Of a stretch of DNA of 51,629 nucleotides, positions 26,485-51,629 are shown piece after piece. Source of the DNA: Calditrichota bacterium. GTDB lineage: Bacteria; Electryoneota; B3-LCP. The notes under the pieces were generated by a model. It did not search any database and was not told the DNA's origin. It saw nothing but the letters and a program-made list of their open reading frames with translations. Numbering within the stretch: the first letter of the stretch is position 1; each line of letters starts with the position of its first letter. A program made the position numbers and the translations under genes. The stretch spans positions 1-51,629 of the forward strand of contig JAGVQJ010000140.1 of NCBI GenBank assembly GCA_020051775.1. The letters are read 5' to 3'.

Positions 26485-26505
26485 CAAATAGGTAGGAAAA
26501 ACAAC

Positions 26506-26916: not shown

Positions 26917-26921
26917 AGAAG

Positions 26922-26975: not shown

Positions 26976-27025
26976 ATACATTTCCCAGCACAGAATGATT
27001 ATAAAAGATTAAATGGGATTGACTC

Positions 27026-27310: not shown

Positions 27311-27345
27311 ATACCTGCAACCCTTTATTAACGCGAGGAGTGGTT

Positions 27346-30302: not shown

Positions 30303-30982
30303 AACCTGCCATCCTGAGATTCACGCTAACTGAGCGTGTGCAGCATATCATACTTCTGTCCAGTCTGATCATCCTGGTGCTGACGGGCCTCTCGTTAATG
30401 TTTCATAATACGGGTTGGGGACGTTTCATGATTTCGCTGGAAGGGGGGCTGGCGGGTCGCGGTTTGATTCACCGACTTGCTGCCCTGATGCTGATCGGTG
30501 TGTCGCTCTACCACTATTTTTATACTCTGCTCAGCAGGCACGGTCATAATTTACTGATGGATTTCCTTCCGGAAAAACGAGATTGGGGTAAATTCGTTAA
30601 GACATTCAAGTTTAACCTTGGCATGATAGACAGCCCACCGGAATGGAGTAAGTTTACATTTTTCCAGAAGCTGCAATACTTTGGCGTTGTGGCGGGGGTG
30701 ATTATAATGATCCTGACGGGTATTGTGCTTTGGCTTGGACCTCAGGCCATCGCTCTGATGCCTAAGTGGTTAGTGGATCTGACCCTGGTAGTGCATGGTT
30801 CTGAAGGATTGCTGATTTTCCTACTTCTACTTTTTTGGCATTTGTATAATGTTCATTTGGCGCCGGGTAATTTCCCCATGAATATGAGCTGGTTGACCGG
30901 TCGCATCAGCGTGGATGAACTTCGCAACCGTTATCCGTTAGAATATAAGCGCATGGTCGAAAGGAAGGAATTAGGCGAATGA
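30299..30982 (+). CDS. b-type cytochrome membrane subunit, FdnI/HydC/PhsC-like (PF01292-type)
   Basis: RFTLTERVQHIILLSSLIILVLTG matches the family N-terminal R..ER..HW...L..TG pattern. Conserved His pairs in TM helices. ATGA overlap with the upstream gene. Confidence 0.72.
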   Translation: MKPAILRFTLTERVQHIILLSSLIILVLTGLSLMFHNTGWGRFMISLEGGLAGRGLIHRLAALMLIGVSLYHYFYTLLSRHGHNLLMDFLPEKRDWGKFVKTFKFNLGMIDSPPEWSKFTFFQKLQYFGVVAGVIIMILTGIVLWLGPQAIALMPKWLVDLTLVVHGSEGLLIFLLLLFWHLYNVHLAPGNFPMNMSWLTGRISVDELRNRYPLEYKRMVERKELGE

Positions 30983-32019
30983 GAATCCTGATTTCCCTAT
31001 GCGCCGGCCTGATCAGCATATCTTTGGCGGTGGTGGCGGCGCCGCCGGTACAAAAATGCGAGTTATGCCACGCCAAACCCGGATTCCAGAAGAAATTAGA
31101 CAATGGACAGATTATCTCGCTGTATGTGCCACCGGATTCGTTAGCTCAATCTGTACATAGCAAACGCGAGTGCAATGAATGCCACCGGGACGTTAACGAA
31201 ATCCCGCACAAGCCGGGTTTGCAATGGGTGGATTGCACAGGTTGTCATTATATCGGAAATCTTGCCGGCGCCCCGGAGCTGCCGATTTACGAGCAATATC
31301 GTGAAAGTGTTCACGGGCGAGCCGCTTTGGCCGGCAATAAGAAAGCCCCGATTTGCCAGGATTGTCATGGAGCTCATAATGTCCAGAAATATCATGCAGA
31401 AGGCTCGCCCTTAAATCGCCAACTTCTACCGGCGAGCTGCGGGCGTTGTCATATCGAAGCGTATCGCCAGTTTGCCTCTTCCATTCACGGCAAACTTTTG
31501 TCGGAGGGTAATCCTGCTGTACCGACTTGTACGGACTGCCACGGTGAACATACCATAGAAAAACCCGAAGAACCAGGGTCGGCGGTTTTCTCAACGCGGA
31601 TTCCGGAAACCTGCGGTAAATGCCATGCGGCAGAAAATATTGTATCGAAGTATGGCGTGTCCATCGAACAGGTGGAAACCTACACCGAAAGCTTTCATGG
31701 TATTGCCACTACTTTTGGATCCAAAAAAGCAGCCAATTGCGCTTCTTGTCATGGGTCGCATGACATCCTGCCGGCTACTGACCAGGAATCTCGCATTTTC
31801 CCTGCCAACATCCCCAAAACTTGCGGGAAATGCCACCCGGAAGCTAATGCCAATTGGGCGCGAGGCAAGATCCACGTGAATGCTTCCAATAAAGATGCGG
31901 GTATTATCTATTACGTGGCTGCTTTCTTCAAATGGCTAACAATTTCCACATTAGTTGGTCTGGTCATCAACATTATCTTGGATCTGCGCCGCAGATTGAT
32001 GAAAAATAAGAAGAGCTGA
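30979..32019 (+). CDS. multiheme c-type cytochrome (9 CxxCH), paralog of 29067..30302, C-terminal TM anchor
   Basis: 9 CxxCH. Shared blocks with gene 29067 (SLYV..DSL..SVH, CTDCHGEHTI, ..KYG...E...Y..S.HG.A). ATGA overlap. Confidence 0.85.
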   Translation: MRILISLCAGLISISLAVVAAPPVQKCELCHAKPGFQKKLDNGQIISLYVPPDSLAQSVHSKRECNECHRDVNEIPHKPGLQWVDCTGCHYIGNLAGAPELPIYEQYRESVHGRAALAGNKKAPICQDCHGAHNVQKYHAEGSPLNRQLLPASCGRCHIEAYRQFASSIHGKLLSEGNPAVPTCTDCHGEHTIEKPEEPGSAVFSTRIPETCGKCHAAENIVSKYGVSIEQVETYTESFHGIATTFGSKKAANCASCHGSHDILPATDQESRIFPANIPKTCGKCHPEANANWARGKIHVNASNKDAGIIYYVAAFFKWLTISTLVGLVINIILDLRRRLMKNKKS

Positions 32020-32051
32020 CCTGAAACAGTAGAAAACACAATTCGATCTTG

Positions 32052-32975
32052 ATGGAAATAACTGACCCCAAGCTCAAAGAAATATTATTGGCCGAATTGC
32101 GCCAACGATTGAAAACCCGCGGTCTCTCCGACTCCGATTTAACCGAAGAACAGCTTGGACAAATGTTAATAGAGCTGTCTGCTGGTCTGGAACGGAAGGC
32201 TGACCAAATTGCTGAGGCAATCAAGCCACCTACCCCTGAAGCGCCAGCGCCGGAGAAACTGTCTAAAGTGAAAGAAGAGCAGTTTCTGCGACTCTCTTTA
32301 AATTTGCGTTTGCAGCATTTCGTCATGCTCTCTTCCATAGTCATCTTGATCATCACCGGTTTACCCCTAAAATTTCACGACGCCGCCATTTCGCACGTGA
32401 TCATTACTTTTTTTGGCGGTATCACGAACTCGGCTTGGATTCATCGTTTCGGCGCCACAGGGTTGATTGGTGTGGGTCTTTTCCATTTGCTCTACACCGT
32501 TTTTACTGTTACCGGACGAAGAGATTTTATGCTGTTATTGCCCAAACCGCAGGATTTGAAGGATTACGTAAAGCAAATAAAATATTTCCTGGGAATGACC
32601 GAGGAAAAGGCCAAGTTTGGCCGGTTCAGCTATATCGAGAAATTCGATTATTGGGCGGTATATTGGGGTATGATCATCATGATCGGATCAGGATTAATGC
32701 TCTGGTTCGAGAGTTTTGTCATGAGTTTTCTTCCCAAATTCATACTGGACATTGCCAAGGAAGCACACAGCGATGAGGCCATGTTGGCGACTTTGGCCAT
32801 CGTTATCTGGCATTTCTATAACGTGCATCTGAATCCCCATAAATTCCCTATGTCAAAAACGTGGATCACTGGTAAAATATCCAAGCATGAAATGATGGAC
32901 GAGCACTCGTTGGAATATGAAGAGATCTTGAAAACGCGTACTGGCGATGAAGCTGTAAAAGGAGGTCGCTCGTGA
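32052..32975 (+). CDS. b-type cytochrome membrane subunit (paralog of 30299..30982) with ~85-aa N-terminal hydrophilic extension
   Basis: [22 protein letters not shown] and [15 protein letters not shown] parallel gene 30299 (WHLYNVHLAPGNFPM). ATG at 32052 (TTG at 32049). Confidence 0.7.
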
Positions 32976-35014
32976 AAGATCTTTTCCACGGTCTTCACCG
33001 AGGGGCCAGAATTTATTTCCGAGAACTACTGGCTCTGGGCGCTGTACTGCTTTTCATACTAATTCTCACTAATCTCGCATGGTTTGGACTATCTCAAAAT
33101 CCCAAAACCTGTCTGACCTGCCATTACATAAGGCCATACTACAACCAATGGGCACATGGAAATCATCGGGACGTTAAGTGTACTGAATGTCACGGCGAGC
33201 GGAAATTTATGATGGGATCTTGGGCGTTCAGTTATATTACCGCCAGTTTTACTGATAAGCCGATCGCCAGAGTCAAGGATTCCGCCTGTTTGAAGTGTCA
33301 TGAACACCAGAGCCTGGATACGGCTCAACCGTTTGAACAAAACATCACCTTCAACCATAAGCTGCATCTGGAAAATCCGGTGCGTGGTGTGCAACTCCAC
33401 TGCATGACCTGCCATAACCACCGCACGCCCGGACAGTATCTGCAGGTGGATGACCGCACTTGTTTCCTGTGCCATTTTAAAGGCGCCGAGAAGGGCCAAT
33501 CCAAAACCGGATGTCAGACCTGTCATGGCAATCCCAAGCAATCGGTCGAACACCAAGGCTTCATGTTCAATCATCAGGCCTACATTGAAGTAGGCGTGAA
33601 CTGCGGACAATGTCACACTGATATTATCAGCGGCAACGCCGCAGTTCCCCAGGAAGCCTGCCAAACTTGCCACGCTCCTCATACTGAAAGGTACAAGGAT
33701 TTCTCTTTGGTGCATGAGGTTCATGTGCACCGCGAAGAGGTTAATTGTTTCCGTTGCCATGATGAGATCCAGCACGGCAAGTTCGGTATGATCAGCTCGC
33801 TGGAAGTTCGTTGCGAAAGTTGTCATGCTAAGCTACACACGCCGGAAAAGCAGTTATACATCGGATCTGGCGGATTAGGAATAGAAGACGAACCGTCACG
33901 CATGTTTCTGGCGCAAGTGTCTTGCGACGGCTGCCATATCGGTAAAGTGGGGTTAGGGGAGGAGAAATTCGGCGCTGCGGCCTTAAGAACGAAGCAGGAA
34001 TCCTGTCTGAAATGCCACGGGAAAGGTTACGATTTGATGCTCGATGATTGGCTGGCTCATACCCCGGAAATGCTAAGGGCATTGGAACCGTCTTTAAGGC
34101 AGACAGAAGCCGCACTAAATCGCAGCAGAGTGGATGATTCGACTCGTGCAGCAATGCAGGAAGCTCGCTACAATTACGATTTTGTAGCCGACGGAAAAGC
34201 TGCGCATAATATCTTTTACGCGGTGGATTTATTGAAGCGGTCGGCGGATAGAATGAACCAGGTTCGGATGAATATGGGTATGCCGCGCCTCGAATCGGCG
34301 CTCGGACCGATGCTGAGTACACCGGACGGTATTTGTAACACTTTGTGCCATGGACGCATCGCCAGGCCGGAAGTTATGACCTATGAAAAGACGAATTTCC
34401 CACATGCATCACATTCCCAGGACCTGGACCTGCCTTGCACCAAGTGCCATGATCCTGATAAACATCGCCAGAAATTCATTAAGCGAGATGGTTGCAAAGA
34501 ATGCCACCATCAGGATGTACCCATCGCTTGTGCGTCTTGCCATTGGCGGCAGAATGATCTTTACCGGGGTGAGAGCCAGGAATTGGGATTGAAAGAATCG
34601 CCGGACGTCATGTTCACAGCCGGAGTGGACTGCCACGGCTGTCATGACCTTTCCGCCTCTCATTCTTTGGAAATCGTGGCCGGTAAATGCGGTGGATGTC
34701 ATGATCCCAGCTACAAGCAGATGCTGACCGAATGGGCTGCTGAAGTACAGCAGGGGGCACAGCAGCTTGCAACAGGGCTTGATTCCGCGCGCACGGAATT
34801 GGAAGAGGCACACCGAGTGGGCCGTTCAGTATTCGATGAAACCCTCGCTGTGAATGAAATCAACCGCCGCAGCCTCTTTATGAAAGAATCACAACCACTG
34901 CACAACTATGCCGCAGCCATAACAGAATACTCGACACTGCGCGAGAAACTGGCCGAAGTTCGTGCACGCCTAAAACCGGGAAAAGCAGCAGTGAGGCAAG
35001 CAGTGGAGAAATAA
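32972..35014 (+). CDS. large multiheme c-type cytochrome (17 CxxCH plus one CxxxCH), N-terminal TM anchor, NapC/NrfH-like beginning
   Basis: AGGAGG RBS then GTG overlapping the upstream TGA. TM helix then CLTCH..CTECH. Heme motifs spread over the whole 680 aa. CNTLCH variant. Confidence 0.85.
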
Positions 35015-35377: not shown

Positions 35378-36748
35378 TTATCCCACTTCATTATATTCCC
35401 TAACTCTGAAATTAGCTCCTATTGATAGGGCCATCTGACGTGCAGCCTCGACATCCACTCCGGGATAAGTCACAACCGATAGCGTCGTTTCCGGCAAGAA
35501 CTGTACGCATTCCCGAGCGAAATCAAGGACGGCCTGGAAAGCGGCTTCGCCGAAATCACTATGCACTAGAGCTTGATAGAGATCGCTGCGGTGTTCATTC
35601 AGGCTGATGGATACGGAATCTATCAATCCCGTCATCTCCGGCACGATGTTGCGTTCGTTGATTAAATTACCCTGACCATTGGTATCCAATCGCACCGTCA
35701 CTCCTTGAGACTTCAACCAGCGGGCGACTTGCAGCAAGGTCTCGAAGCGCATCGTAGGTTCGCCGAAACCACAGAAGACCGCTTCATCATATCGAGTCGG
35801 GTCCCCCAACGCAGTGATGACTTGTTCAGCGGTTGGCTCTTCTGATGCCCTCATACCGATATAATGACCCTTCACCACCGGTTGAATTGATCGGGGACAG
35901 AATACGCAGGCATTGGTACATCGCGAAGTTAAAGCAATATAGATTGAATTGCGGATCGGATAAACGAACGTGTTCTGGGGCGCTTCACCAATTCCAAAAA
36001 GCCTGTGGGTGTTAAAGCGGGTGATGCGGGCGACGTCTTCGATGCTAAGCCGTTTGATCTCGGCGATCTTAGCTGCAACCAAAGGCACAAACGCAGGTTC
36101 ATTGCGTTTGCCTCGGTTTGGGACCGGCGTCATGAAAGGACAATCGGTTTCCAGCAGCAGTCGTTCCACCGGAGTAGCCTTGACGATAGGGAGGAGGGTG
36201 CTGTTTTTATAGGTGATGTTTCCGGTATAGGAGATCATGAAATCCAGATCCAGCACTTGTTTAAGTTCCTCGAGGGTCCCGGAGAAACAGTGAAACACAC
36301 CGCGTACTTTTCCCCGGCCCTCTTGGTGTATTATGGCCACAGTGTCAGAGAAAGCTTCACGACAATGGACGATCAACGGTTTATCCAGGTCAACAGCCAG
36401 GTTGACCATCCGAGCGAAGACCGAGCGTTGATTTTCGCGCGAAGAACGATGACGGTAGTAATCCAGCCCGGCTTCACCCAGCGCCACAACTTTGGGATTA
36501 CTGGAAAAATTGCGGATGTGTTGCTCTAAATCAACACCGGCTTTGTCAGCTTCGTGGGGATGCCAACCGACGGAGGCATAGACCTGCTCATGCTGGGTAG
36601 CAATCTCCAAGGCAGCGTGGTTGGTAGTTGCATCAATACCGATGGTGATAATATTCCTGATCTTAGCCAGCCGGGCATTGGATAACACTGATTCCAAGTT
36701 CGGTCTTAGTTCAGGAAAGTCAAGGTGAGCGTGAGTATCTATAAACAT
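35378..36748 (-). CDS. TatD-family metal-dependent hydrolase fused to a C-terminal radical SAM domain
   Basis: N-terminal MFIDTHAHLDFPE and GLDYY..HCREAF TatD motifs. C-terminal half carries CTNACVFCP (CX3CX2C) and GFGEP, typical of radical SAM. Confidence 0.75.
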   Translation of the reverse strand: MFIDTHAHLDFPELRPNLESVLSNARLAKIRNIITIGIDATTNHAALEIATQHEQVYASVGWHPHEADKAGVDLEQHIRNFSSNPKVVALGEAGLDYYRHRSSRENQRSVFARMVNLAVDLDKPLIVHCREAFSDTVAIIHQEGRGKVRGVFHCFSGTLEELKQVLDLDFMISYTGNITYKNSTLLPIVKATPVERLLLETDCPFMTPVPNRGKRNEPAFVPLVAAKIAEIKRLSIEDVARITRFNTHRLFGIGEAPQNTFVYPIRNSIYIALTSRCTNACVFCPRSIQPVVKGHYIGMRASEEPTAEQVITALGDPTRYDEAVFCGFGEPTMRFETLLQVARWLKSQGVTVRLDTNGQGNLINERNIVPEMTGLIDSVSISLNEHRSDLYQALVHSDFGEAAFQAVLDFARECVQFLPETTLSVVTYPGVDVEAARQMALSIGANFRVREYNEVG

Positions 36749-37445: not shown

Positions 37446-37796
37446 ATGGCCAAGGATCAGGAAGTGATTTATCGCCTTCACGCTGAAGTCTGTAAGGTGT
37501 TGGGGCATCCCCTAAGAATTGCTATTATTGATCATCTGCAGGATTCGGAGATGAGTGCCGGAGAGCTGGCGAGACTGATGGAGGTCTCAAAAGCAAACCT
37601 GTCGCAGCACCTGGGAATCATGCGCCATAATGGGATTGTGGAAGCGCGTCGGGAGGGTTCGCACCTCTTCTACAGAATCACGAATCCGAAGGTCGTCCAG
37701 GCTTGCCGGCTGATGCGGGAAGTTATGCTGGAGAGAGTGACCAGTAACGAAATATTGATACACCAGGCTTTGGCACAAGAAGAAAGGAATAGCTAA
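37446..37796 (+). CDS. ArsR/SmtB-family transcriptional regulator (BigR/SqrR-like dithiol candidate)
   Basis: HTH ..MSAGELARLMEVSKANLSQHLGIMRHNGIV.. Cys16 and Cys87 flank the wHTH, as in persulfide-sensing ArsR members. Confidence 0.85.
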   Translation: MAKDQEVIYRLHAEVCKVLGHPLRIAIIDHLQDSEMSAGELARLMEVSKANLSQHLGIMRHNGIVEARREGSHLFYRITNPKVVQACRLMREVMLERVTSNEILIHQALAQEERNS

Positions 37797-37797
37797 A

Positions 37798-38148
37798 ATG
37801 AAGTATCTTATCATCCTGAATGATCCCGCCTATGGGACGGAGAAATCCTATAACGGATTGAGATTGGCGCTGTCCTTGTGCAAACGTGAGGAAGTTGATT
37901 TGAGAGTCTTTCTGATGGCGGATGCCATTTCCTGTGGCCACCTCAATCAGAAGACTCCGCAGGGTTATTATAATCTTGAGCGCATGATTAAGGGATTGGC
38001 GGGGATGGACGTACCGGTGGGGGCTTGCACGACCTGTATGGACGCTCGGGGGATGGAGGACACGCATTTGGCACTAGGCGTGCACCGTAGTTCACTGGAC
38101 GAGCTCACCGATTGGACTATTTGGGCGGAAAAAATCCTCGTGTTTTAA
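37798..38148 (+). CDS. DsrE/DsrF/TusD-like sulfur-relay family protein
   Basis: MKYLIILNDPAYGTEKSYNGLRLALSL...VFLMADAISCGHL is the canonical DsrE-like fold pattern. Starts 2 nt after the arsR stop. Confidence 0.78.
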   Translation: MKYLIILNDPAYGTEKSYNGLRLALSLCKREEVDLRVFLMADAISCGHLNQKTPQGYYNLERMIKGLAGMDVPVGACTTCMDARGMEDTHLALGVHRSSLDELTDWTIWAEKILVF

Positions 38149-38167
38149 TTACGTTTTAGGAGGTCTG

Positions 38168-39409
38168 ATGAGTGGAAAATCCGTTGTCATTCTGGGGGCG
38201 GGGGTTGGAGGTTTAGTGGCCGCCAACCGCCTGCGACAACTGCTCCCGCGTGAGCACCAGATAATATTAGTTGAAAAAAAACCGGTTCACGCCTTTGCGC
38301 CCTCCTTTCTCTGGTTGATGACCGGTGAACGAAACACAGAGCAGATTACCAGGGAAGTGCAGCGGCTGGTGCGTCCGGGAATCCGAATCATTCCTCAGGA
38401 AGCGCGTCGCCTGGATACGGTCAATCATCGCGTTGAAACTACGGGGGAAACGCTAAATTATGATTACTTAATTATTGCCCTGGGTGCAGAGCTTGCTCCA
38501 CAGTTGACTCCTGGATTAACAGACGACGTTCACACCTTCTACACTCTGAAGGGTGCTCAAAAATTACACGAAGCCTTACGGCAGTTTCGTGGGGGGAAAA
38601 TCGCCCTCGTAATCGGAAAACTCCCTTATAAATGCCCTGGAGCGCCGCATGAAGGGGCTATGCTTATAGCCGATTTCTTCCGCAAGCAGGGCTTAAAGGA
38701 CAAGGTGGAAATCCTTCTATTTACACCGGAAGCGCAACCCATGCCGGTGGCTGGACCGGAACTTGGCAAGGCGTTAAGGCAGATGCTCGAGTCAAAAAAT
38801 ATTTCCTTTAATCCCTCGCATAACCTTGCTTCAATAGACCAGAATAGCCACGAGCTTTCATTCGAGGGCAAAGATCCTTTTCGATACGATATGCTTATCG
38901 CTATCCCTCCACATGTTGCACCTCAAATCGTGCAAGAAGCGGGATTAACAGACGGATCAGGTTGGATTCCAGTGGATCGCGCAACCCTCAAAACGAATCG
39001 TGAACAAGTCTTTGCGATTGGCGACATCACCTCCATTTCAATACCGGGGCGCTGGAAATCTGATACCCCCATGAAGCTACCCAAGGCGGGGGTGTTTGCC
39101 CATGTTCAGGCAGAGGTTGTGGCTCATAGAATTGCCAGTGAAATTGATAACTCTTCGCCAACAGCCGAATTCTGCGGGCTTGGTTACTGTATGTTGGAAG
39201 CAGGCGAAGATCTCGCTGGTTTCGCCTTTGGCGACTTTTTCGCTGAACCTACACCGCGCTTAGAGCTTAGGCGCATAGGCTCGGCGTGGCATATCGGGAA
39301 AGTTTTGTTTGAGAAATGGTGGCTGTCGCCTTTAGGGATGAAGCGCGAGCTGCTGAGAATGTCATTGAAATTGGGCGGCAAAACGATGGGTATTCCAATA
39401 GAGATTTAA
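38168..39409 (+). CDS. sulfide:quinone oxidoreductase-like FAD-dependent disulfide oxidoreductase
   Basis: VVILGAGVGGLVAANRL (FAD Rossmann). KPVHAFAPSFLWLMTGER. Conserved Cys in YKCPGAPHE. 413 aa. AGGAGG RBS. Confidence 0.62.
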   Translation: MSGKSVVILGAGVGGLVAANRLRQLLPREHQIILVEKKPVHAFAPSFLWLMTGERNTEQITREVQRLVRPGIRIIPQEARRLDTVNHRVETTGETLNYDYLIIALGAELAPQLTPGLTDDVHTFYTLKGAQKLHEALRQFRGGKIALVIGKLPYKCPGAPHEGAMLIADFFRKQGLKDKVEILLFTPEAQPMPVAGPELGKALRQMLESKNISFNPSHNLASIDQNSHELSFEGKDPFRYDMLIAIPPHVAPQIVQEAGLTDGSGWIPVDRATLKTNREQVFAIGDITSISIPGRWKSDTPMKLPKAGVFAHVQAEVVAHRIASEIDNSSPTAEFCGLGYCMLEAGEDLAGFAFGDFFAEPTPRLELRRIGSAWHIGKVLFEKWWLSPLGMKRELLRMSLKLGGKTMGIPIEI

Positions 39410-39445
39410 ACACGTACAACTTCTCTAAACGACTAAGGGTTTCAC

Positions 39446-40051
39446 ATGAAAACGATACTCACTTTCAGCTTAAGTATCATTCTGGGGATGGGATGGCTCA
39501 GCCTGCCGGTAAAAGCTTACCCCCCTGCCGTCGGGATCACCGGCAATAGTCCCAGCTGCCTGGCCTGCCACATCAGCAACGGCCCGTGGAACGACAACGC
39601 TGATATGATTGTGGATATATTGGACAAGGACACGAAAGTTAGTCTCAAACAGCAAGACGGATCATTTTTGATTGAGGTCCTAAAAAATCAGACCCGCAAG
39701 GTATTGACCATCCTGGGCCGTAAAGCCGGAGAAAAGGCAGAGATCCCCAACCGGAATGCCTGGCTCTATGTAGATCAGTCAATTATCGGGAAAACGAATT
39801 TCTCCACATTTCCAACGGGGTGGGAAGTTAATCTACCCATGGCTTGTCGTCTCGTAGGTGATAAGTCGGACAAATATCCCGGAGCTGCATTAACAGTTTT
39901 GCCCATGAGTATTCGTGCCACAGATAATGCGCAGAACGGCACGGTCATGCTTCAGGTAATGCTGACCAAAGGAGAAGCGGTCAAGGGAAAGGCGAAGGAG
40001 GGGATGATAGGGAACTACTATGAGAGACAAATACATTTGGTAGTTAAATAA
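39446..40051 (+). CDS. secreted hypothetical protein with a single CxxCH (possible monoheme c-type site)
   Basis: Signal peptide, then SPSCLACHISNGPW. No other recognisable motifs. Confidence 0.45.
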   Translation: MKTILTFSLSIILGMGWLSLPVKAYPPAVGITGNSPSCLACHISNGPWNDNADMIVDILDKDTKVSLKQQDGSFLIEVLKNQTRKVLTILGRKAGEKAEIPNRNAWLYVDQSIIGKTNFSTFPTGWEVNLPMACRLVGDKSDKYPGAALTVLPMSIRATDNAQNGTVMLQVMLTKGEAVKGKAKEGMIGNYYERQIHLVVK

Positions 40052-40063
40052 ATGGAGCGGGAA

Positions 40064-40567
40064 ATGCGTCGAGTAAGGGGAGCGCTGTTGATGTGCATGT
40101 TGCTAGCGGCAATCGTCGCCAATGTGTACGCGACTACAACAGGTGAAAAAATCGGTGACTCCGTCTCAGATTTCACTCTTAACGATCTCGAGGGTAATAA
40201 ACACCATCTTCGTGAATACCTTAATAAAGGCCCTGTGGCTCTGTGGTTCACCAACCTCTGTAGCAACTGCCAACAGGGGTTACCACAGCTTAAGCAGACA
40301 TTCGACGACAAAAAGATAAAGTTGCTGATTATCAGCGTGCTGGGAGACGATCGAGAAACCCCGGCACGGGTCGCTAAAAAACACGATTTACGTATGCCAA
40401 TCCTGTTAGATCCGAAAGGAATGACGGTAAAACAGTTTTCTGGAGGTTACCTCCCTGATACCTGCCCTATGACAAATTTCTTCGTCATCGAGAAGACCGG
40501 AAGAGTCGCAATATGTGGTCATTATCCCGGCTTGGGTCTTTCTAAGATAAATAATTATATGAAATAA
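40064..40567 (+). CDS. TlpA/ResA-like periplasmic thiol:disulfide oxidoreductase (thioredoxin fold)
   Basis: Signal peptide. WFTNLCSNCQ (CxxC). Redoxin-like length. GGAG before ATG 40064 (alternative ATG 40052). Confidence 0.7.
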   Translation: MRRVRGALLMCMLLAAIVANVYATTTGEKIGDSVSDFTLNDLEGNKHHLREYLNKGPVALWFTNLCSNCQQGLPQLKQTFDDKKIKLLIISVLGDDRETPARVAKKHDLRMPILLDPKGMTVKQFSGGYLPDTCPMTNFFVIEKTGRVAICGHYPGLGLSKINNYMK

Positions 40568-42702: not shown

Positions 42703-44175
42703 TCAGTGGCGGGAACTTCGTAATTCATTTTGATGAATGGAGACAATTAATGCAAAAACCGGGATCATGGGAAGATGATACCTGCCTTCGCTTATAAAGG
42801 CCATGTAAATGAGAGTCAAATACAAGGTCGGTCCCATCAATAGCCAAAATCGAGATGTAAATCCCTCTTCTTTAAAAAACATAATCACGGCGAGGAAAAA
42901 CCCAAGAAGAAGCATCGAATAATAGCCCTCCGTTCCGGCGATGAGGATCATCATCACCACCGGGGAAATTTTATCATAAGTTCCACCCGTGGCATAAGAT
43001 ACGGCTTTACTGTCTTTTGAGTACAAAAAGATTAGCTTTTTGGGCCATTTGGAGATGGCTTGAATTGGATGCGCGAAAACGAAGGACATCCCTTGCTGAT
43101 ATCCGTAGCGATCCTTTTCAGTTTCTGTGAGAGATTCCAATTTGTCTCTTGTTTCCGGCGAGATGAAGGAATTCCAATCAATGAATCCTCCACTCGTGAG
43201 AGAATTGTTCCCCATCCAGAAATGCATGCCGCCGTTGGTCGAAGAAAGGGTAAACGCTCCAAAGGCTCGATAATTCCTTATCTGCCAAGGCAGCAGCACT
43301 AATTCACCAACTAAAAAAATTAACAAAAATTGAACTGCGGCTGTGCGGAGCGAATCGCGCTTCATAATCCGGTAAATAAATAATACGAACGGCAAAAGCA
43401 TGGCAACCGATCTGATTAATACCGCCAAACCGAACACCAGACCAATGAAGATATCACCGGTTATCCCCTCGCGCTTCAGGGCTAAAAACATGACCAATAT
43501 GATGCTAAACGAGAAAAACGGATCGGATAAGATGGGGAGAGAATAGAGGGATATGGAGGGGGTTAATATCAGTATCAAGGCGGTTCTTCGGGCGGTTATT
43601 GGTCCAAACAGATGCTTAGCCATCCCGTAAGCCAATAGTATCATTCCCAATAATAGCAAAGAATTAATTGCCTGTCCAACGAAAATGGACGGACCCGTGA
43701 AACGGTACGCGATAGCCAAAAGAACTGGATATCCTATCGGCCACCAAGCAGTAGGATCGCCATCCGCTTCCAAAATTGGCTCAAAACGGGAAAAGTGCTC
43801 AGCGTACTGATAATAATTATGATCGTCATAAGTGAACAAATCGTAGGGGAGAAAATAAATCAAGGCGAGACTCAGCGCCAGTTTGAAAATGATTATAGTG
43901 ACGAGAAAATGTCTTTCACGCCAACGGTAAAGACCTAATATATTTCGTTCGCATAAATAAAGAAATATCGAAACCAATAAAAATCCCAACCCAGTGATGA
44001 TAACCCCCCAATGGCGATCCTTTAGAGCCTGCGCAATGGGGGCGTCAATGCTGCCATCAGAGGAAAGTTGCGAAGCCATCACCGGCAGGATCGGGGCACC
44101 TCCCATGATCTGGAAAAGACCGAGGCAGAGAGTGCTTATTCCAGCGATCGCGAGAAGGATGATGAATGGTTTCAT
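42703..44175 (-). CDS. GT-C fold membrane glycosyltransferase (family 39/83-like)
   Basis: Multi-TM. Periplasmic loop YDDHNYYQYAEHF..WWPIGYPVLL. Paralog of 44195..45661. AAGGAA RBS before ATG 44175. Confidence 0.65.
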   Translation of the reverse strand: MKPFIILLAIAGISTLCLGLFQIMGGAPILPVMASQLSSDGSIDAPIAQALKDRHWGVIITGLGFLLVSIFLYLCERNILGLYRWRERHFLVTIIIFKLALSLALIYFLPYDLFTYDDHNYYQYAEHFSRFEPILEADGDPTAWWPIGYPVLLAIAYRFTGPSIFVGQAINSLLLLGMILLAYGMAKHLFGPITARRTALILILTPSISLYSLPILSDPFFSFSIILVMFLALKREGITGDIFIGLVFGLAVLIRSVAMLLPFVLFIYRIMKRDSLRTAAVQFLLIFLVGELVLLPWQIRNYRAFGAFTLSSTNGGMHFWMGNNSLTSGGFIDWNSFISPETRDKLESLTETEKDRYGYQQGMSFVFAHPIQAISKWPKKLIFLYSKDSKAVSYATGGTYDKISPVVMMILIAGTEGYYSMLLLGFFLAVIMFFKEEGFTSRFWLLMGPTLYLTLIYMAFISEGRYHLPMIPVFALIVSIHQNELRSSRH

Positions 44176-44194
44176 GGGTGGTTCCTTGGAGGCT

Positions 44195-45661
44195 TCAAAT
44201 ATGTTCGTTAGAGGAAACCAGGTGTTGTACTGCCAACCAGGCGAAAATCGGCATGAGTGGCATGTGATAGCGGCCATCGGCCACGAACGGTAAATGAATA
44301 CCGATAAAGTATATGACAGTACCCGCCAACAACCACAGCCGTGGTGAACATTTTTCTTTTTTTATAAAGGCCGGGAGTGCAATTAAAAATGCCAGCCCCA
44401 ATGTGTAGTAGTAACCTTCAGTGATTACGATGAGCGCCATCAATACCGCCGGGCTAACTTGTTCTGAACTCCACATAAATCCATACGTTATGCATTTACT
44501 GTCTTTATAAAAAAGGTGAATGAACTTTTTAATCCAGGATAAAACTGTATTTGCCGGATTATGCAGCATGTAGGAAATAGCTTGCTTGGTGGCATAGCTG
44601 TCGCGTTGCTTTTCATTTAAGGCAGCTAACATCCATTTTAATGTATCGGGATGAACATAAGTGGCCTCATCAATGAATCCGCCCGTGGCCATAGGGTTGT
44701 TTCCACGCCACAGATTGTAGCCTCCATGATTAGAGACCATGACGAACTCGTCAAAGGTGCGATAGTTTCGAATTTGCCAGGGGAGAAGAATGCTTTCAGC
44801 AATTAGATAGATAATGGCTATCCGCCCCAAGACCAACTTCAAGTTTTTATTCTGAAGGTACCAGAAAAGCGCAATAATAACCGGGTAAAACACCAGTATC
44901 GGTCGCGTCAGCAAAGCCGCACCAAAAAGTATTCCAAGAGCAATGGTATTGATAATTGAGTGTCTTCTCACCACAAAATAAGCCATGACGGCAAAATAGA
45001 ATGCGAAAGGAATGTCAGCGATGGGGACGAAGGAATATAGAACCTGAGAGGGTAGGAATGCCAACAGTAATGCCGCACGGCGTGCTATCCTGTCATTGAA
45101 CAGGCGAGCGCCAATCAAGTAAGTGAACAAGGAAATAGCAGTAAGCATAAGAATATTTAAATACTGAGCTGCGAGGATGCTTGGACCAACAATTTTGAAT
45201 AGAAGCGATAACAGTAATGGGTACCCAATCGGAAAGTAAGCGGTAGGATGACCATCTTTGGTGGCTACCTCCAATCCCTTATAAAGATTTCTGGCTTGAT
45301 CCAAGTACCAGATAGAATCGGCAGCCTCTTCATATTGATAAGAGTGGATATAAATGAGACTGCCGATAACTTGAAAGCTCAGAATCAAAATAAGAAATCT
45401 GGATACTTTCCAATCGAAGATGCCGATTTTCCCACGCTCAACCAGATACAAGAAGGCTGTCATCATTCCGAGGAAGAATGCGGCTATCATCAAGCCAGGT
45501 AAAAGTCCTTCGAAGGCACGGAGGGCTAAACTGTCCAATACTCCATCAGAAGTGGCTATCTGGGCAAGTGATTCAGGTTGAAACGGCTGGAAGGTGATGG
45601 CTAAGGCTGCCAGGAGACACATTCCGCTCGCAGCCGCCAATAAGTAAATGAAACGCTTCAT
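44195..45661 (-). CDS. GT-C fold membrane glycosyltransferase (paralog)
   Basis: YEEAADSIWYLDQARNLYKG..YFPIGYPLLLSLLF parallels the neighbouring gene. Confidence 0.65.
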   Translation of the reverse strand: MKRFIYLLAAASGMCLLAALAITFQPFQPESLAQIATSDGVLDSLALRAFEGLLPGLMIAAFFLGMMTAFLYLVERGKIGIFDWKVSRFLILILSFQVIGSLIYIHSYQYEEAADSIWYLDQARNLYKGLEVATKDGHPTAYFPIGYPLLLSLLFKIVGPSILAAQYLNILMLTAISLFTYLIGARLFNDRIARRAALLLAFLPSQVLYSFVPIADIPFAFYFAVMAYFVVRRHSIINTIALGILFGAALLTRPILVFYPVIIALFWYLQNKNLKLVLGRIAIIYLIAESILLPWQIRNYRTFDEFVMVSNHGGYNLWRGNNPMATGGFIDEATYVHPDTLKWMLAALNEKQRDSYATKQAISYMLHNPANTVLSWIKKFIHLFYKDSKCITYGFMWSSEQVSPAVLMALIVITEGYYYTLGLAFLIALPAFIKKEKCSPRLWLLAGTVIYFIGIHLPFVADGRYHMPLMPIFAWLAVQHLVSSNEHI

Positions 45662-45797
45662 GAAGTATGCTCTGGTGCTTTAGTCCAAATTCCCGACAAG
45701 AATCTTGATTGGTTCCATGTTAAATATAAATGAACATGGCGAAGAAAACAAATACTTTCCTTTAATTTACTGCGACTAGAGTCCATTAAAAAAACCG

Positions 45798-45826
45798 TTG
45801 ACAAATCACTGAATATTTGTTATTTT
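45798..45826 (+). promoter_or_regulatory. sigma70-like promoter upstream of the BMC-H pair
   Basis: TTGACA (45798-45803), 17-nt spacer, TATTTT (45821-45826). AGGAGA RBS at 45853. ATG at 45863. Confidence 0.55.
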
Positions 45827-45862
45827 AAGTGAAAGGATTAATTTGCTTTACCAGGAGACAAT

Positions 45863-46174
45863 ATGCCCGGTGACACCATGCGCACTCTGGAAGCCTTGGG
45901 GATGATCGAAACCCGAGGACTGGTCGCCGCCATTGAAGCGGCCGATGCGATGGTCAAAGCCGCCAAAGTCCAGCTTGTGGGGAAAGAAAAAATCGGCGGT
46001 GGCTATGTGACAGTATTCGTTCGCGGCGATGTCGGCGCGGTGAAAGCAGCCACAGATGCCGGAGCCACAGCCGCCGAAAAGGTCGGCGAACTGGTGTCTG
46101 TCCATGTCATCCCCAGGCCGCATCAGGAAGTGGAGATCATAGTCCCCACACGCGAACACCCCAACCTGGAATAG
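45863..46174 (+). CDS. bacterial microcompartment shell protein, BMC-H (PduA/EutM/CcmK type)
   Basis: [57 protein letters not shown] is near-identical in pattern to PduA. Confidence 0.92.
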
Positions 46175-46195
46175 GCCTTAACATAGGTGAATTAA

Positions 46196-46690
46196 ATGGC
46201 CAAATTGCAGGACAAGCCGATCCTGACAGAACGCGCTCTCGGTATGATTGAGACGACCGGTCTGGTCGGAGCTATCGAAGCCGCTGATGCTATGCTCAAA
46301 GCCGCCAGAGTACGATTGCTGGATAAAGAGCTTAGCAGCGGGGGGCTGGTAGTTATTCAGGTGCTGGGAGAGGTGGGAGCAGTACGCTCCGCCGTTGATG
46401 CCGGGGCCAAAGCCGCCGAAAGGGTAGGACAGTTGGTTGCCACGCACATCATCCCCCGCCCGCATGACGAAGTTGAAGACCGGCTGCTTTACTCGGAGGG
46501 TGGTTCCAATAATTTGCAAAAGCACACGGGCAAAAACGAGGGACCAGATCGTCTTGAAAGTTTGACAGTGACTGAATTGCGCGCTTTGGCAAGAAAAACC
46601 ACCGGATTTCCTTTATCGGGTCGCGACATCTCCAAGGCGGGTCGGGATCTGCTATTAACAGAACTGCGCAGGTTTTTTCCACCTGCCTGA
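46196..46690 (+). CDS. BMC-H shell protein with ~75-aa C-terminal extension carrying a Rho_N/SAP-like helical motif
   Basis: BMC domain ([25 protein letters not shown]...THIIPRPH). Tail ..LESLTVTELRALARKTTGFPLSGRDISKAGRDLLLTEL.. matches the L..L.V.ELR.LA...G.......K..LI..I pattern of the Rho N-terminal domain. Confidence 0.85.
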   Translation: MAKLQDKPILTERALGMIETTGLVGAIEAADAMLKAARVRLLDKELSSGGLVVIQVLGEVGAVRSAVDAGAKAAERVGQLVATHIIPRPHDEVEDRLLYSEGGSNNLQKHTGKNEGPDRLESLTVTELRALARKTTGFPLSGRDISKAGRDLLLTELRRFFPPA

Positions 46691-46710
46691 TCGTCTTAAC
46701 GAGTGACAGC

Positions 46711-47100
46711 ATGTTGCGTCCGCGATTCCGGTTCTGGGCGACCCTTAGACCTTATTCTCGCGTGATCCTTCTGTGGGCGATCATTGGCTTGATGATCGCC
46801 CTCGGCATTTGGTTGGGGGTGGATAAAAAGGTCATTGGTCTTGTGCTGGTAGTATTCGGAATCGCCACCCAGGCCTTTTCCAGTCTGCTGCTGGTCTTGG
46901 GCGCAATACCGATCGCAGGTCCGTTGATCGTAAAGGTCTTTACGCTGCCCTTTTTCTGGATTCTGAATGGTTTGGGGTACTTCCTTTCCATTTTTGCGAT
47001 CAGGCGAGGTTATTCCAAAGACGTATTCAGTTACCGCATTTTCACAATTGTGTTTCTGGTCGGACTCGTTTTTGGGTTTATTCTTGGTAAAATACTCTGA
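46711..47100 (+). CDS. small integral membrane protein (4 TM), hypothetical
   Basis: 129 aa, four hydrophobic helices. Begins 21 nt after the second BMC-H gene. Confidence 0.5.
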   Translation: MLRPRFRFWATLRPYSRVILLWAIIGLMIALGIWLGVDKKVIGLVLVVFGIATQAFSSLLLVLGAIPIAGPLIVKVFTLPFFWILNGLGYFLSIFAIRRGYSKDVFSYRIFTIVFLVGLVFGFILGKIL

Positions 47101-47110
47101 CAAAAGGCGA

Positions 47111-49504
47111 ATGGTCATGCGCAATACGACCTTAATAGCCAGCCTGGCAATGGCGGTTTCCCTGCTACCTGGGATGGCTTTAAGCTATCTCAAGCCCACT
47201 CTGAGCACAGCCACGCCACCGACCGCTTCGCAAGTATTCAAACCTGCCTGGGTTGATGATGACACCGTCATTTTTCTGGCCGATTTTGAAACTACCGGCG
47301 GAATGAATGCCTGGACCTCTTCGGACCTAACCAATCCTGGTCCCACCTGGCACCGCGACGTGTACAACGCTTATAATAACCACTCCTGGTGGGTGGGCAA
47401 GCAAACCCTAGCCGGCTATGATAACAATTGGCTACAGTACCTGGTGACGGATACTTTCAGCATATCCGGAGTTACCAATCCGCGTCTCACTTGTAAAGTT
47501 TATTGGGCAACCGAACCACCCCTTGGGCCTTTTCCAACCGGATACGATGGTTGGGATGGGTGCAACGTTTGGATATGGAATGGTTTTATCTGGCAACTAT
47601 TGATTCCCGATTTCCCAGCTTACAATACGGCCAGCCAATACGGCTTCGGATGGTTGTGGGGGATGGGATTGGGGATTCCCGCCTGGGCGGGAACTTCCGA
47701 CTGGGTTACGGCCCAATTCGATCTGTCGTCATACACTTTCCTGCCCAATGTGCGATTGCGCATAGCTTTTTGCTCTGATCCTGCCAACTGTACTGCCGAA
47801 AACACTACTTGGACCGGAATCTTCGTGGATGACATCCTGGTCACGGATGGATCCACAATATATCTTTCCGACGACGCCGAAGGCAATCCATACCCTGGGG
47901 AATCCACTTTCGCAACCGGTGATCCCTATGGCAATTATTGGGTTTTAACCACCCCGCAGGCTCATAGCCCTACGCATAGCTGGAATTGCGATGATCGTTT
48001 TTTCTTGTCGGATGCCTTGATTTCTCCCACGGTAAACATCCCCGCCGGTATGAGCACTATTTTAAGCTATTGGGTGTATTGTGACATGCCGGATTTCGAC
48101 GGCGACCACGATGATTTTTTGGATGATTACTACTATATTGAAGTGTTGCCGACCAGCAGCTCCACCTGGATACCGATAGCGTATGATTATGCCCGCAACG
48201 GATCGCAGTTACAGTGGGTGGAAAGAATTGATGGTGTTTGGAATAGTTTGCCTGTACCCATTTTGAATCTCACACCCTGGGCGGGACAATCGGTTAAACT
48301 GCGTTTCCGCACGGTAACTGATGGCGATAACAACGGCGGCATCGGTAACGGTCTGTACATTGATGATGTGACCCTGATTAGCCACATTTTGCCCAATAAT
48401 GACGTGGGCGCTTACAAACTGGTGATCCCGTTCCCCACGTATCAGGGGCAAAGCCAGGTCGCCGGATCCGTCGAATTGATCAATTACGGCGTGTTGAATC
48501 AACCGCAAGTGCCGGCCTCTTGGTCAGTTAATGGACTTACTACCCCGTTCATTCCCTGGGCGTCCATCAATGCCGGAGATACTTTAATCAGAAATTTTGC
48601 CTGGACTCCGCCTGCGTCTGGTTCCTTTGATTTCAAAGCTTTCACACACATGTCCGGCGACCAGAATCAGACAAATGACTCCAGTCATGCAGGGGTAGTC
48701 GAAGTTACACCAACGGGATTCTTCGAACTCGGCTACGATCATCGCCAACTATCTTACTTGCCGGAAACAGACCTGCTGGCCTTCAATTTTGGACAAGGAG
48801 GCGGCGCGATGGTCCATTTTACCCCTGAAACTGACGGTCTCGCCGGCACATTATATGGCAGCACCCTGAAAGTTATGTTTCGTACGGCAGGTGATTTCAC
48901 TCTGCACTTTTTCGAGAACGGGGAATTCGGCCAGCCTGGAAATGAAGTCCACAGCCGACCGATCACGCTCTCCGAAACCCAAATATTTCCCAATTGGGCT
49001 AATATTGATATTTCAGACGTTGCCTTCCTGCAAGGTGGGCACCCCGATTTCTGGGTTTGGCTGGAGGTCACTGCGCAGAATTTCACTCCCCATATCACCG
49101 GATATCTTGAAGACGCCTTTTCCTACGGGCATTTCTTCTTCCACGATAATCAAGGTACGGAGCAAACCATCATCAATTTCAATATTCGTGCGATAATGAC
49201 GGGCACAGCCGCGGTTGATCCCAATTTAGGTCTACAGCCGGCAAGCATCATGCTTCTGGCTGGGTATCCCAATCCTTTCAACAGTATGGTTCACGTTTCA
49301 TTCACTCTACCGGCGCCCGTTGATGTGCAGTTAGAGATTCTCGATCTAATGGGGCGGAGAGTTGCCACACTTGTGAACGGAAGAGTGCCCGTCGGCGAAC
49401 AAGCCGCCATCTGGGATGCGGGTGATTTTCCCTCAGGCAATTATTGGATAAGGTTAATTGCGGGTTCTCGCATAATGACGGAAAGAATCGTATTACTTAA
49501 GTGA
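47111..49504 (+). CDS. large secreted protein with T9SS C-terminal domain; shares N-terminal domain with the next gene
   Basis: ATG 47111 after AAAGGCGA. Signal peptide MVMRNTTLIASLAMAVS. YDGWDGCNVW block. C-terminal LLAGYPNPFNS...RIVLLK. Confidence 0.75.
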   Translation: MVMRNTTLIASLAMAVSLLPGMALSYLKPTLSTATPPTASQVFKPAWVDDDTVIFLADFETTGGMNAWTSSDLTNPGPTWHRDVYNAYNNHSWWVGKQTLAGYDNNWLQYLVTDTFSISGVTNPRLTCKVYWATEPPLGPFPTGYDGWDGCNVWIWNGFIWQLLIPDFPAYNTASQYGFGWLWGMGLGIPAWAGTSDWVTAQFDLSSYTFLPNVRLRIAFCSDPANCTAENTTWTGIFVDDILVTDGSTIYLSDDAEGNPYPGESTFATGDPYGNYWVLTTPQAHSPTHSWNCDDRFFLSDALISPTVNIPAGMSTILSYWVYCDMPDFDGDHDDFLDDYYYIEVLPTSSSTWIPIAYDYARNGSQLQWVERIDGVWNSLPVPILNLTPWAGQSVKLRFRTVTDGDNNGGIGNGLYIDDVTLISHILPNNDVGAYKLVIPFPTYQGQSQVAGSVELINYGVLNQPQVPASWSVNGLTTPFIPWASINAGDTLIRNFAWTPPASGSFDFKAFTHMSGDQNQTNDSSHAGVVEVTPTGFFELGYDHRQLSYLPETDLLAFNFGQGGGAMVHFTPETDGLAGTLYGSTLKVMFRTAGDFTLHFFENGEFGQPGNEVHSRPITLSETQIFPNWANIDISDVAFLQGGHPDFWVWLEVTAQNFTPHITGYLEDAFSYGHFFFHDNQGTEQTIINFNIRAIMTGTAAVDPNLGLQPASIMLLAGYPNPFNSMVHVSFTLPAPVDVQLEILDLMGRRVATLVNGRVPVGEQAAIWDAGDFPSGNYWIRLIAGSRIMTERIVLLK

Positions 49505-49582
49505 GGGATCAGACTTGGAACATCAAGAACCTAACTTCATAGATGAGTCATTGTTAAATTTGTACAACTTAAGGAGGATAGT

Positions 49583-51629
49583 ATGAGTACCAGAAATTAT
49601 TGGATTCCGCTGTGCTTGATCTTGATTGCCGTTACAACCTCAAATGGCAGCGAACGCCATCAAGTCTTGATGCCCAGAACCGAAGCGGTGCCGATGCCGG
49701 GAGAGGCGCCAAGTTATGCAGTAGATGAAACTGACAGCGTTATTCTCTTTGAGAATTTCGAAACAGGAGCGCCGGGGTGGACTTTTGTAGATCTTACCGA
49801 CCTGCCAATTTATTGGCATGTTGACGATTATAATCACTATGAAAGCGGCGGTAGCCTTCTATCCTGGTGGTCGGGTGATACTGCGATCATGGGCTACGAC
49901 AACCACACTCTTCAGTATCTTGAGAGTCCTACCCTGAATTTAACCGGTGCGGTCAATCCTACGCTAACCTTCAATCTCTTCCATTCCGTCGAAACGACAC
50001 CTGGTGCAACACCGCCTTACGACGGATGGGACGCTTGCAATGTATGGGTTTCCACCAACAACGGATCAACCTGGGCGGTACTACCCAGTCCAACTCCTGC
50101 TTATAACATGACCAGCTCCTATGCCTTCGGTTATGAATTCGGCATGGGACCCGGTATTGCAGGATGGGGAGGATATTCGGGCGGCGTATCACCCGGAGCC
50201 TGGGTTAACGCTTCTTTCTCACTAAACAGCTATATCTCCAGCCAGGTGAAAATCCGCTTTGCCATGTGTTCCGATCCGGCCTACAGCACACTTCAGGACT
50301 CAACCCTGCGTGGGATGTTCGTAGACAACATCCTGGTTCAAGCCGGCACCACGGCCTATCTGCGGAACAATGCTGAAGGGATCGCTATCCCCAGCGAAAT
50401 GGTCCCTACTTTGCCTTTGCCGCCGGTGGGCAGCTTTTGGCACGTGGAAACCCTTACCTCGCCATTCCCCACACCGCCATCGCCCACGCACGGAGCTCGC
50501 ATGTCCAACGGTTTGGGCATATCGTCGCAGTATCCGCCCATGACCTATTGTGCTTTAGTCTCACCGATGATTGATTTGACCGGCATCGGATTCGGCATGG
50601 GTCAAGTTTATGCTGACTTTTTTCACACCGGGCAGATCAACTTGAACGACCCGGATCCCTTCCCGGATCTGGATATCTGGACCATAGAAGTCAAACCTGA
50701 CACCGGCGTAACCTGGTACAACTGGAACGATCCGTTCAATCAAGGTGCTCAGCACTTCGTGTTTTCCAGTTTACCAACCACCTGGGATTCATTGGGTCTC
50801 TGGCAGGGTTTGCAGGAGGGTGTGCCTCTTACAGCCTATATTGGCATGCGAATTCAGGTGCGTGTCATTTTCCAAGCTGACATTGATCAATTTGCCGGTT
50901 ATGGCATGTTGTTGGATAACTTCAGCGTGGATTTCATCGGGGGTTTGTCCCATGATGTTGCCGCCCGCAAGTTGAAAGTACCCATGCCCACTTCCACCTA
51001 CTTCGATACCATCTATGCTTCGGTGGAACTCCACAACCTGGGTCAGAATCTGGAATCATCGGTTCCGGCGTTCTGGCGGATCAATAGCGGTGTAGCCAAC
51101 CCCATGATCCCCTGGGCCTCGATCCCGCCGGATGGAATGGTCATGAAGGCTATCAACTGGGTCGTACCGGAGACGCCAGGATCGTTCTTCTTCGATGCCT
51201 ACACAAGGTTGGGTTCCGACCTGGATCTTTCCAACGACACCGCCAAAGCCGGATCCGTAGAACTTACGCCGGATTCCCTCTTTGAGTTCGGCTACGATAA
51301 CCGTCAGTATGGCTACGAAAGCACCTACTACTTCAATTTTGAACCAGGTGAAGGCGCTTACATTCGTTACACTCCGACGGCGGATCGGGTAAACTTTAAC
51401 GTATATGGGCATTACTTGCGAGCCAGGTTTATGGATACCGGATCCATCAGAATCCACCTTTACCAGGCTGGAGCCGATCCCACTCAACCAGGCTCGCCGA
51501 TCACGCAATGGGATGCCATGGTTACTCAAGTTTCTCCCAGTTGGCAGCAGTTCGATATTTGGAATGTGCCCGAACTGCAAGGGACCCACGCAGATTTCTG
51601 GGTATTCTATGAAATGATTGACACTTCCA
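49583..51629 (+). CDS. paralogous large secreted protein (5' part; open to window end)
   Basis: AAGGAGGA RBS then ATG 49583. Signal peptide. YDGWDACNVW and FEFGYDNRQ blocks parallel 47111..49504. No stop before 51629. Confidence 0.7.
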   Translation, partial: MSTRNYWIPLCLILIAVTTSNGSERHQVLMPRTEAVPMPGEAPSYAVDETDSVILFENFETGAPGWTFVDLTDLPIYWHVDDYNHYESGGSLLSWWSGDTAIMGYDNHTLQYLESPTLNLTGAVNPTLTFNLFHSVETTPGATPPYDGWDACNVWVSTNNGSTWAVLPSPTPAYNMTSSYAFGYEFGMGPGIAGWGGYSGGVSPGAWVNASFSLNSYISSQVKIRFAMCSDPAYSTLQDSTLRGMFVDNILVQAGTTAYLRNNAEGIAIPSEMVPTLPLPPVGSFWHVETLTSPFPTPPSPTHGARMSNGLGISSQYPPMTYCALVSPMIDLTGIGFGMGQVYADFFHTGQINLNDPDPFPDLDIWTIEVKPDTGVTWYNWNDPFNQGAQHFVFSSLPTTWDSLGLWQGLQEGVPLTAYIGMRIQVRVIFQADIDQFAGYGMLLDNFSVDFIGGLSHDVAARKLKVPMPTSTYFDTIYASVELHNLGQNLESSVPAFWRINSGVANPMIPWASIPPDGMVMKAINWVVPETPGSFFFDAYTRLGSDLDLSNDTAKAGSVELTPDSLFEFGYDNRQYGYESTYYFNFEPGEGAYIRYTPTADRVNFNVYGHYLRARFMDTGSIRIHLYQAGADPTQPGSPITQWDAMVTQVSPSWQQFDIWNVPELQGTHADFWVFYEMIDTS

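Follow-up and report, generated by a model that had tools for sequence, protein, structure and literature searches.

The 51,629-nucleotide contig JAGVQJ010000140.1 of Calditrichota bacterium (GCA_020051775.1), analysed here over its whole length and referred to as the window, carries two tandem genes (H1 and H2) for BMC-H proteins, the hexameric shell components of bacterial microcompartments (BMCs), with no other microcompartment gene on the same contig. Our favoured reading, to which we give a probability of about three in four, is that H1 and H2 are the hexameric facet proteins of a fragmented BMC of the published FRAG3 type. H2 would be a minor tile bearing a C-terminal tail, and the triplet of BMC-P genes and the cargo would be encoded elsewhere in the genome. 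The argument starts from the following features.

45798-45826, forward strand: promoter-like sequence (TTGACA, 17-nt spacer, TG-extended TATTTT), 36 nt 5' of the first start codon.
45863-46174, forward strand: BMC-H gene 1 (H1), 103 aa; PF00936, E 2.4e-30; predicted basal, facet-forming shell hexamer.
46196-46690, forward strand: BMC-H gene 2 (H2), 164 aa; PF00936, E 2.6e-26, with the domain at residues 14-89, a disordered linker at ~100-116 and a conserved C-terminal helical tail.
46544-46678, forward strand: H2 tail domain, residues ~117-161; predicted helix, extended loop, helix; SAP/LEM/Rho_N-like.

Each gene encodes one BMC domain, with PF00936 scores of 104.7 bits for H1 and 91.8 bits for H2 against the Pfam cut-off of 24.5, in agreement with the preliminary description of this DNA, which had recognized two tandem BMC-H genes. 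The genes are separated by 21 nt, and Shine-Dalgarno-like sequences (AGGAGA for H1, AGGTGA for H2) precede their start codons by 5-8 nt. H1 is ~80% identical to EutM of C. difficile (PDB code 4AXJ) and ~74% identical to the BMC-H of Haliangium (5DJB). The motifs that form the hexamer edge are present in both proteins, as DAMVKAAK and IPRPH in H1 and as DAMLKAAR and IPRPH in H2. In an alignment of 29 members of the H2 family, no change is seen at the tiling residues K35, R88 and P89, and H90 is conserved in at least 90%. Judged by its sequence, H1 is a textbook basal BMC-H, a highly conserved facet hexamer; formation of hexamers and their tiling into facets are predicted from the 74-80% identity to crystallised hexamers. 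The proportion of nonsynonymous differences (pN) for H1 is 0.05-0.07 against a proportion of synonymous differences (pS) of 0.64-0.89, giving a ratio of the corresponding rates (dN/dS) of ~0.03-0.06, and the values for H2 are a pN of 0.20-0.28 against a pS of ~0.8. Synonymous change is saturated, and by these values strong purifying selection acts on both genes.

The pair had been placed under a TTGACA-N17-TATTTT promoter, and the site is indeed there. It lies within the intergenic gap, matches 10 of 12 consensus positions in addition to the extended -10 TG, and scores best in a consensus scan of positions 44000-50000. Because promoter-like sites in this interval are no commoner than in shuffled sequence, the match taken alone is weak evidence for a promoter. 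Comparison with relatives adds to it: the blocks TTGAC-A and TTTG-TA-TT are invariant upstream of the pair in four of them (L001, L002, L005 and L006), in regions that are otherwise ~50% identical. We infer a putative promoter at 45798-45826 from this conservation.

The isolation of the pair on the contig was examined with a hidden Markov model (HMM) built from 66 BMC-P open reading frames (ORFs) of other loci, which as a positive control detected BMC-P in 62 other loci. Applied to a six-frame translation of the whole 51.6-kb window (segments of at least 30 aa), this model gave no BMC-P match at E<=10, and a BMC-domain HMM applied to the same translation recovered no third BMC-domain ORF besides H1 and H2. 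Pfam searches of the ~45 further ORFs of the window returned no aldehyde dehydrogenase, PduL/PTAC, BMC-T or other signature enzyme, and no DeoC/LacD aldolase of family PF01791 is encoded on the contig by the same searches of window ORFs. The absence of vertex, BMC-T and enzyme genes asserted in the preliminary description therefore holds. The clade gives the same result: in 12 of 12 loci BMC-P is absent within 10 kb of the pair, as are a third BMC-domain gene, aldehyde dehydrogenase and PTAC.

Full-length relatives of H2 form ~48 clusters in the database, among them proteins of LCP-89 bacterium B3_LCP and of a metagenome-assembled genome (MAG) labelled Zixibacteria. B3_LCP (GCA_005223185.1) carries the orthologous pair, with H1 93% and H2 61-62% identical to the window proteins, and the surroundings are those of the window: epimerases, PMT_2, H1, H2, a 128-aa membrane protein and MAM/T9SS proteins (T9SS, type IX secretion system). 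Counting B3_LCP, eight relatives keep the pair in this neighbourhood. The block they share runs through epimerases, PMT_2 or a methyltransferase, H1, H2, the 128-aa membrane protein, the MAM/T9SS proteins, a 258-aa protein, Pyr_redox, Thiamine_BP, GalT and GH57, and identity of H1 within the clade is 88-93%. One of these relatives, L086 (GCA_003599535.1), is labelled Candidatus Zixiibacteriota and shares the full ~20-kb neighbourhood with B3_LCP and the window; its phylum label at NCBI, or the phylum boundaries themselves, may need revisiting.

The same two-gene arrangement is found well beyond the clade. A scan of species-representative genomes with the H2 family alignment gave at least 80 loci among the matches listed, mostly BMC-H of Firmicutes. 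Among these matches, Cytophagia, Rhodothermales, Gemmatimonadaceae, Chlorobiales, Bacteroidota and Ignavibacteria have a basal H1 and, next to it, a tailed H2 that carries the same C-terminal motif; their H1 is 78-87% identical to window H1. In Gemmatimonadaceae an ORF resembling aldehyde dehydrogenase (AldDh) lies directly 3' of the pair. Nearly all the tail-bearing loci listed have exactly two BMC-domain ORFs. BMC-P is absent within 10 kb in 15 of the 17 tail-bearing loci, compared with 3 of the 63 other BMC-H loci (Fisher p 1.5e-11, among the loci listed), and all three tail-less loci that lack it are short contigs. Isolation from BMC-P is thus the rule for the basal-plus-tailed pair, which forms a conserved unit of two genes in six or more phylum-level lineages and is statistically segregated from BMC-P. 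The expectation that such an orphan pair would be notable in this lineage is not supported by these counts; isolated pairs have been catalogued since 2021.

The two tail-bearing loci that do contain BMC-P are informative about the nature of H2. In a Clostridium sp. (L017) the tailed BMC-H (9998-10654) is part of a complete glycyl-radical-enzyme (GRM) locus, and in a Propionibacteriaceae MAG (L042) it is part of a complete EUT locus (10016-10597); besides BMC-P, both loci encode AldDh or PTAC. Since tailed BMC-H proteins occur inside complete loci with BMC-P, they are genuine shell components and not stand-alone scaffold proteins. The EUT locus further suggests that its tailed BMC-H is a non-homologous replacement of EutK.

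H2 had been described only as a PduA/CcmK-like BMC-H. The assignment to BMC-H is right, but it overlooked a conserved C-terminal domain. Past the BMC domain, H2 is extended by ~70 residues in total, comprising a variable stretch of ~25 residues, the linker, and then a conserved motif of ~40 residues, L..tVkELRaLARkt.gFpLSGReISkAGk..Ll.EL. In an AlphaFold2 model of the H2 monomer, the confidence score (pLDDT) exceeds 90 for the BMC domain, falls below 50 at residues 100-116 and returns to ~90 at residues 118-158, which are modelled as three to four short helices; a model of the tail by itself reaches a pLDDT of 93.8. Eight of 22 tails match SAP at all (best E 0.0048) and six of 22 match Rho_N (best E 2.2e-05), with none of the 22 reaching a Pfam gathering threshold for SAP, LEM or Rho_N; the window tail scores 14.5 bits for SAP against a cut-off of 23.9. 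The evidence that the tail is SAP/LEM/Rho_N-like is accordingly weak but consistent. A search of PDB sequences with the tail profile gave matches at chance level only. Homology with the C-terminal helix-turn-helix of EutK is not supported either, no relationship being detectable.

A search of 1.84 billion representative proteins with the same profile, with matches clustered at 50% identity, collected 701 clusters at E<=1e-3, and all of the matches are at the very C-terminal end. Among the best 150 of the 701 clusters, a BMC domain stands at the N-terminus in 117, and short fragments account for most of the remaining 33. By this distribution the tail is essentially a BMC-H-specific appendage. 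It runs through the lineages of FRAG1, FRAG3 and FRAG8 and turns up in GRM and EUT loci too. BMC-H C-termini lie on the concave face of the hexamer, which faces outward in solved shells, as reported by Sutter et al. 2017; from this it would follow that the H2 tail domain is on the cytosolic side, in six copies per hexamer. There the tails might bind nucleic acid or an external partner, by analogy with EutK, SAP and Rho_N. We put forward, tentatively and with more doubt than confidence, the idea that this BMC-H-specific SAP/HeH-like tail tethers microcompartments to the nucleoid or to RNA from the shell exterior, for positioning, inheritance or coupling to their own transcripts, and that in function it would be a widespread equivalent of the EutK tail. 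Within the literature library searched, no paper pairs "SAP domain" with BMC shell proteins. The tail is the single aspect of the pair that goes beyond the catalogue of fragmented BMCs.

That catalogue defines the types FRAG1-8, in which a genome spreads its shell genes over as many as six places, for the most part at a distance from enzymes, and has a BMC-P triplet (Sutter et al. 2021, PMC8217296). They have been recorded from Ignavibacteriae and phyla related to it, from Gemmatimonadetes and Planctomycetes and from many candidate phyla, and neither cargo, substrate nor encapsulation peptides have been identified for them (PMC8217296). FRAG3 is described from Calditrichaeota, KSB1 and LCP-89 and includes an LCP-89 genome; its components are spread over as many as six sites, often with no enzymes, its BMC-P triplet is at other genomic sites, and a PF01791 aldolase adjoins a BMC-P (PMC8217296, Supplementary Data 2). 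The window pair fits this type, and FRAG3 lists LCP-89, the phylum of the closest named relative. The dispersal typical of FRAG3 is seen both in the 51.6 kb of the window and in the 12 clade loci, where the BMC-H genes have neither BMC-P nor typical enzymes beside them. The link to the FRAG3 lineages runs through orthology and synteny with LCP-89 bacterium B3_LCP only, and one syntenic MAG bears the label Zixibacteria.

If the FRAG3 assignment of this genome is right, its shell genes would be scattered around the chromosome instead of clustered with enzymes. H1 would provide the bulk facet tile, and H2, as a minor tile, would co-assemble with it through the shared edge residues, with the small SAP/HeH-like domain attached through ~25 flexible linker residues. 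Other parts of the genome would supply the vertex pentamers of the BMC-P triplet and any cargo, perhaps a pathway with a DeoC/LacD-type aldolase; this placement is taken from the FRAG catalogue and from the relatives. On this reading the window pair is a further, uncatalogued example of a published fragmented type.

The preliminary description had offered two readings, shell genes serving a distant main locus or a non-canonical use of the hexamers as sheets or nanotubes. What is supported of the first is that the genes would serve BMC parts encoded elsewhere, in line with the fit to FRAG3 and with the tailed BMC-H proteins of GRM and EUT loci; for the second, nothing positive was found. The first reading in its classical form would have one consolidated, enzyme-bearing main locus, for instance a SPU- or PVM-like metabolosome for a sugar or rhamnose, for which the pair would supply or tune facets as CcmK3/K4 do. 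Satellite loci are a defined category, namely shell genes distal from a main locus (PMC8217296), and the conserved promoter-like site that the pair has to itself is compatible with separate regulation. Yet H1 is the basal and most conserved kind of BMC-H, the tail-bearing loci listed nearly all consist of two BMC-H genes only, and the catalogue places the LCP-89 genome under a fragmented type and not under one with a consolidated main locus (PMC8217296). We regard a classical satellite as unlikely.

Use of the hexamers without BMC-P, as open sheets, tubes or a scaffold in a genome that has no pentamers and makes no closed compartment, seems to us more unlikely still. BMC-H proteins alone form sheets and nanotubes in vitro, which lends this reading some plausibility, as does the lack of BMC-P on the 51.6-kb contig and within 10 kb of the pair in the 12 clade loci. 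The existence of FRAG types without identified cargo or encapsulation peptides also speaks for it, but the catalogued FRAG types, the LCP-89 member included, all have BMC-P triplets elsewhere (PMC8217296). The proteins themselves argue against it as well: H1 shares ~74-80% sequence identity and the edge motifs with hexamers that form closed shells, and tailed BMC-H proteins are found in loci with BMC-P as well (L017 and L042).

The genes that surround the pair are the GT-C glycosyltransferases, four-helix membrane protein and T9SS cargo that had been noted previously.

42703-45661, reverse strand: two adjacent PMT_2 (GT-C) ORFs, overlapping by 83 nt as called (44195-44277).
46711-47100, forward strand: 129-aa membrane protein with four predicted hydrophobic helices and no Pfam match, 20 nt 3' of H2.
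47111-49504 and 49583-51629, forward strand: tandem InhA-like_MAM paralogues, the first with a Por_Secre_tail (T9SS sorting) domain and the second running off the contig end.

The position 5' of the pair is variable, with one or two PMT_2 genes or a methyltransferase in the relatives; in the window, the second PMT_2 ORF probably starts later than called. Relatives have one to three InhA-like_MAM copies at the 3' position. The gene for the 129-aa membrane protein is probably co-transcribed with the BMC-H pair, its counterpart standing 26-38 nt 3' of H2 in 7 of the 8 clade relatives. The exception is L086, where the pair and the MAM genes are kept and only a 266-nt gap is left in place of the membrane gene. 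That the membrane and T9SS genes lie next to the pair is a matter of common descent and not of functional linkage, because the entire ~20-kb block, epimerases, PMT_2, Pyr_redox and GH57 included, is kept to the same degree across the clade. A functional operon of the pair with the membrane protein and the MAM/T9SS proteins, such as a membrane-anchored lattice linked to secretion, is suggested by the tight gaps of the window (21, 20 and ~10 nt), by the lack of a predicted terminator before 47748 and by the conserved position of the membrane gene, but given this clade-wide synteny, the loss of that gene in L086, gaps of ~90-115 nt to the MAM gene in relatives, and no homologue of the membrane or MAM protein beside the pair in any other phylum among the loci listed, we reject these neighbours as functional partners and consider such an operon very improbable.

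The remainder of the contig carries several further gene groups. Very large secreted proteins with T9SS signals are encoded at 3575-19923, namely an S8 subtilase (943 aa), a 1026-aa protein and a 1347-aa protein with beta-helix, fn3 and Rha78A-Ig domains; a sulfatase follows them, and a 670-aa Por_Secre_tail protein is encoded on the minus strand. At 25168-28092 (forward strand), NfeD and SPFH/Band-7 (stomatin-like) genes flank a 136-aa ORF without a Pfam match, as they also do in L087 and L089. Five genes at 29067-35014 (forward strand) alternate multihaem c-type cytochromes (Cytochrome_C7, Cytochrom_c3_2, MtrC/MtrF-like) with cytochrome b561-type subunits (Ni_hydr_CYTB); this cluster, which is also found upstream in relative L002, looks like a membrane or extracellular electron-transfer module. 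A 456-aa ORF at 35378-36748 (reverse strand) fuses a TatD-type DNase/hydrolase domain with a radical SAM domain, and the fusion adjoins a PTS EIIA-2 gene in L002, L086, L087 and L089. What looks like a small sulfur or redox module occupies 37446-40567 (forward strand), with an ArsR-type helix-turn-helix regulator, a DsrE-family protein, a Pyr_redox_2/FCSD-like flavoprotein, a 201-aa protein without a Pfam match and an AhpC/TSA peroxiredoxin, in an order that is identical in L002.

For the shell genes, the favoured reading as part of a FRAG3-type BMC means that orphan BMC-H pairs in candidate phyla of the FCB group are better read as pieces of fragmented BMCs than as anomalies. It also draws attention to tailed BMC-H proteins, a class of shell protein so far mentioned only in passing. 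Their tail, compact, confidently folded in the models and specific to BMC-H, gives rise to the testable hypothesis that it binds nucleic acid or another partner at the shell exterior.

Comparison with known systems places the pair further. For LCP-89 itself, the title of Youssef et al. 2019 announces "microcompartment production", and the work reportedly links BMC genes with rhamnose catabolism, which counts in favour of the satellite reading. CcmK3/CcmK4, the satellite of the beta-carboxysome, resemble the window genes as a tandem BMC-H pair that stands away from a main locus under separate regulation. They are, however, accessory paralogues of the CcmK of that main locus, whereas one of the window genes encodes the basal hexamer itself and the pair has no known consolidated main locus. 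EutK of the E. coli and Salmonella EUT systems likewise joins a BMC-H to a small C-terminal helical domain thought to bind nucleic acid, although the two C-terminal domains are not detectably homologous. H1 shares its edge motifs and ~74% and ~80% identity, respectively, with the BMC-H of Haliangium ochraceum (5DJB/5V74) and EutM of C. difficile (4AXJ), whose genes, in contrast, are located in loci with other shell or enzyme genes.

The closest parallels are among the fragmented types. The same arrangement of basal and extended BMC-H is known from FRAG1 and from some FRAG8 loci, and an AldDh gene after the pair has been described for FRAG8 (PMC8217296). FRAG1 (Ignavibacteria, Chlorobi, Bacteroidetes and Rhodothermaeota) and FRAG8 (Gemmatimonadetes) share with the window the tandem, the C-terminal motif and the lack of BMC-P nearby; they differ in lineage, in longer linkers of up to ~100 residues and in H2 proteins that are only 39-52% identical to window H2. 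The groups outside the clade in which the tandem was recovered belong to these FRAG1 and FRAG8 lineages. With respect to FRAG3, the eight loci of the catalogue do not include the window contig, and the BMC-P triplet and PF01791 aldolase of that type are not seen along its 51.6 kb. In the features that the contig does display, the likeness to FRAG3 is close: the shell genes are remote from enzymes and BMC-P, and an LCP-89 genome has the orthologous pair in the same neighbourhood.
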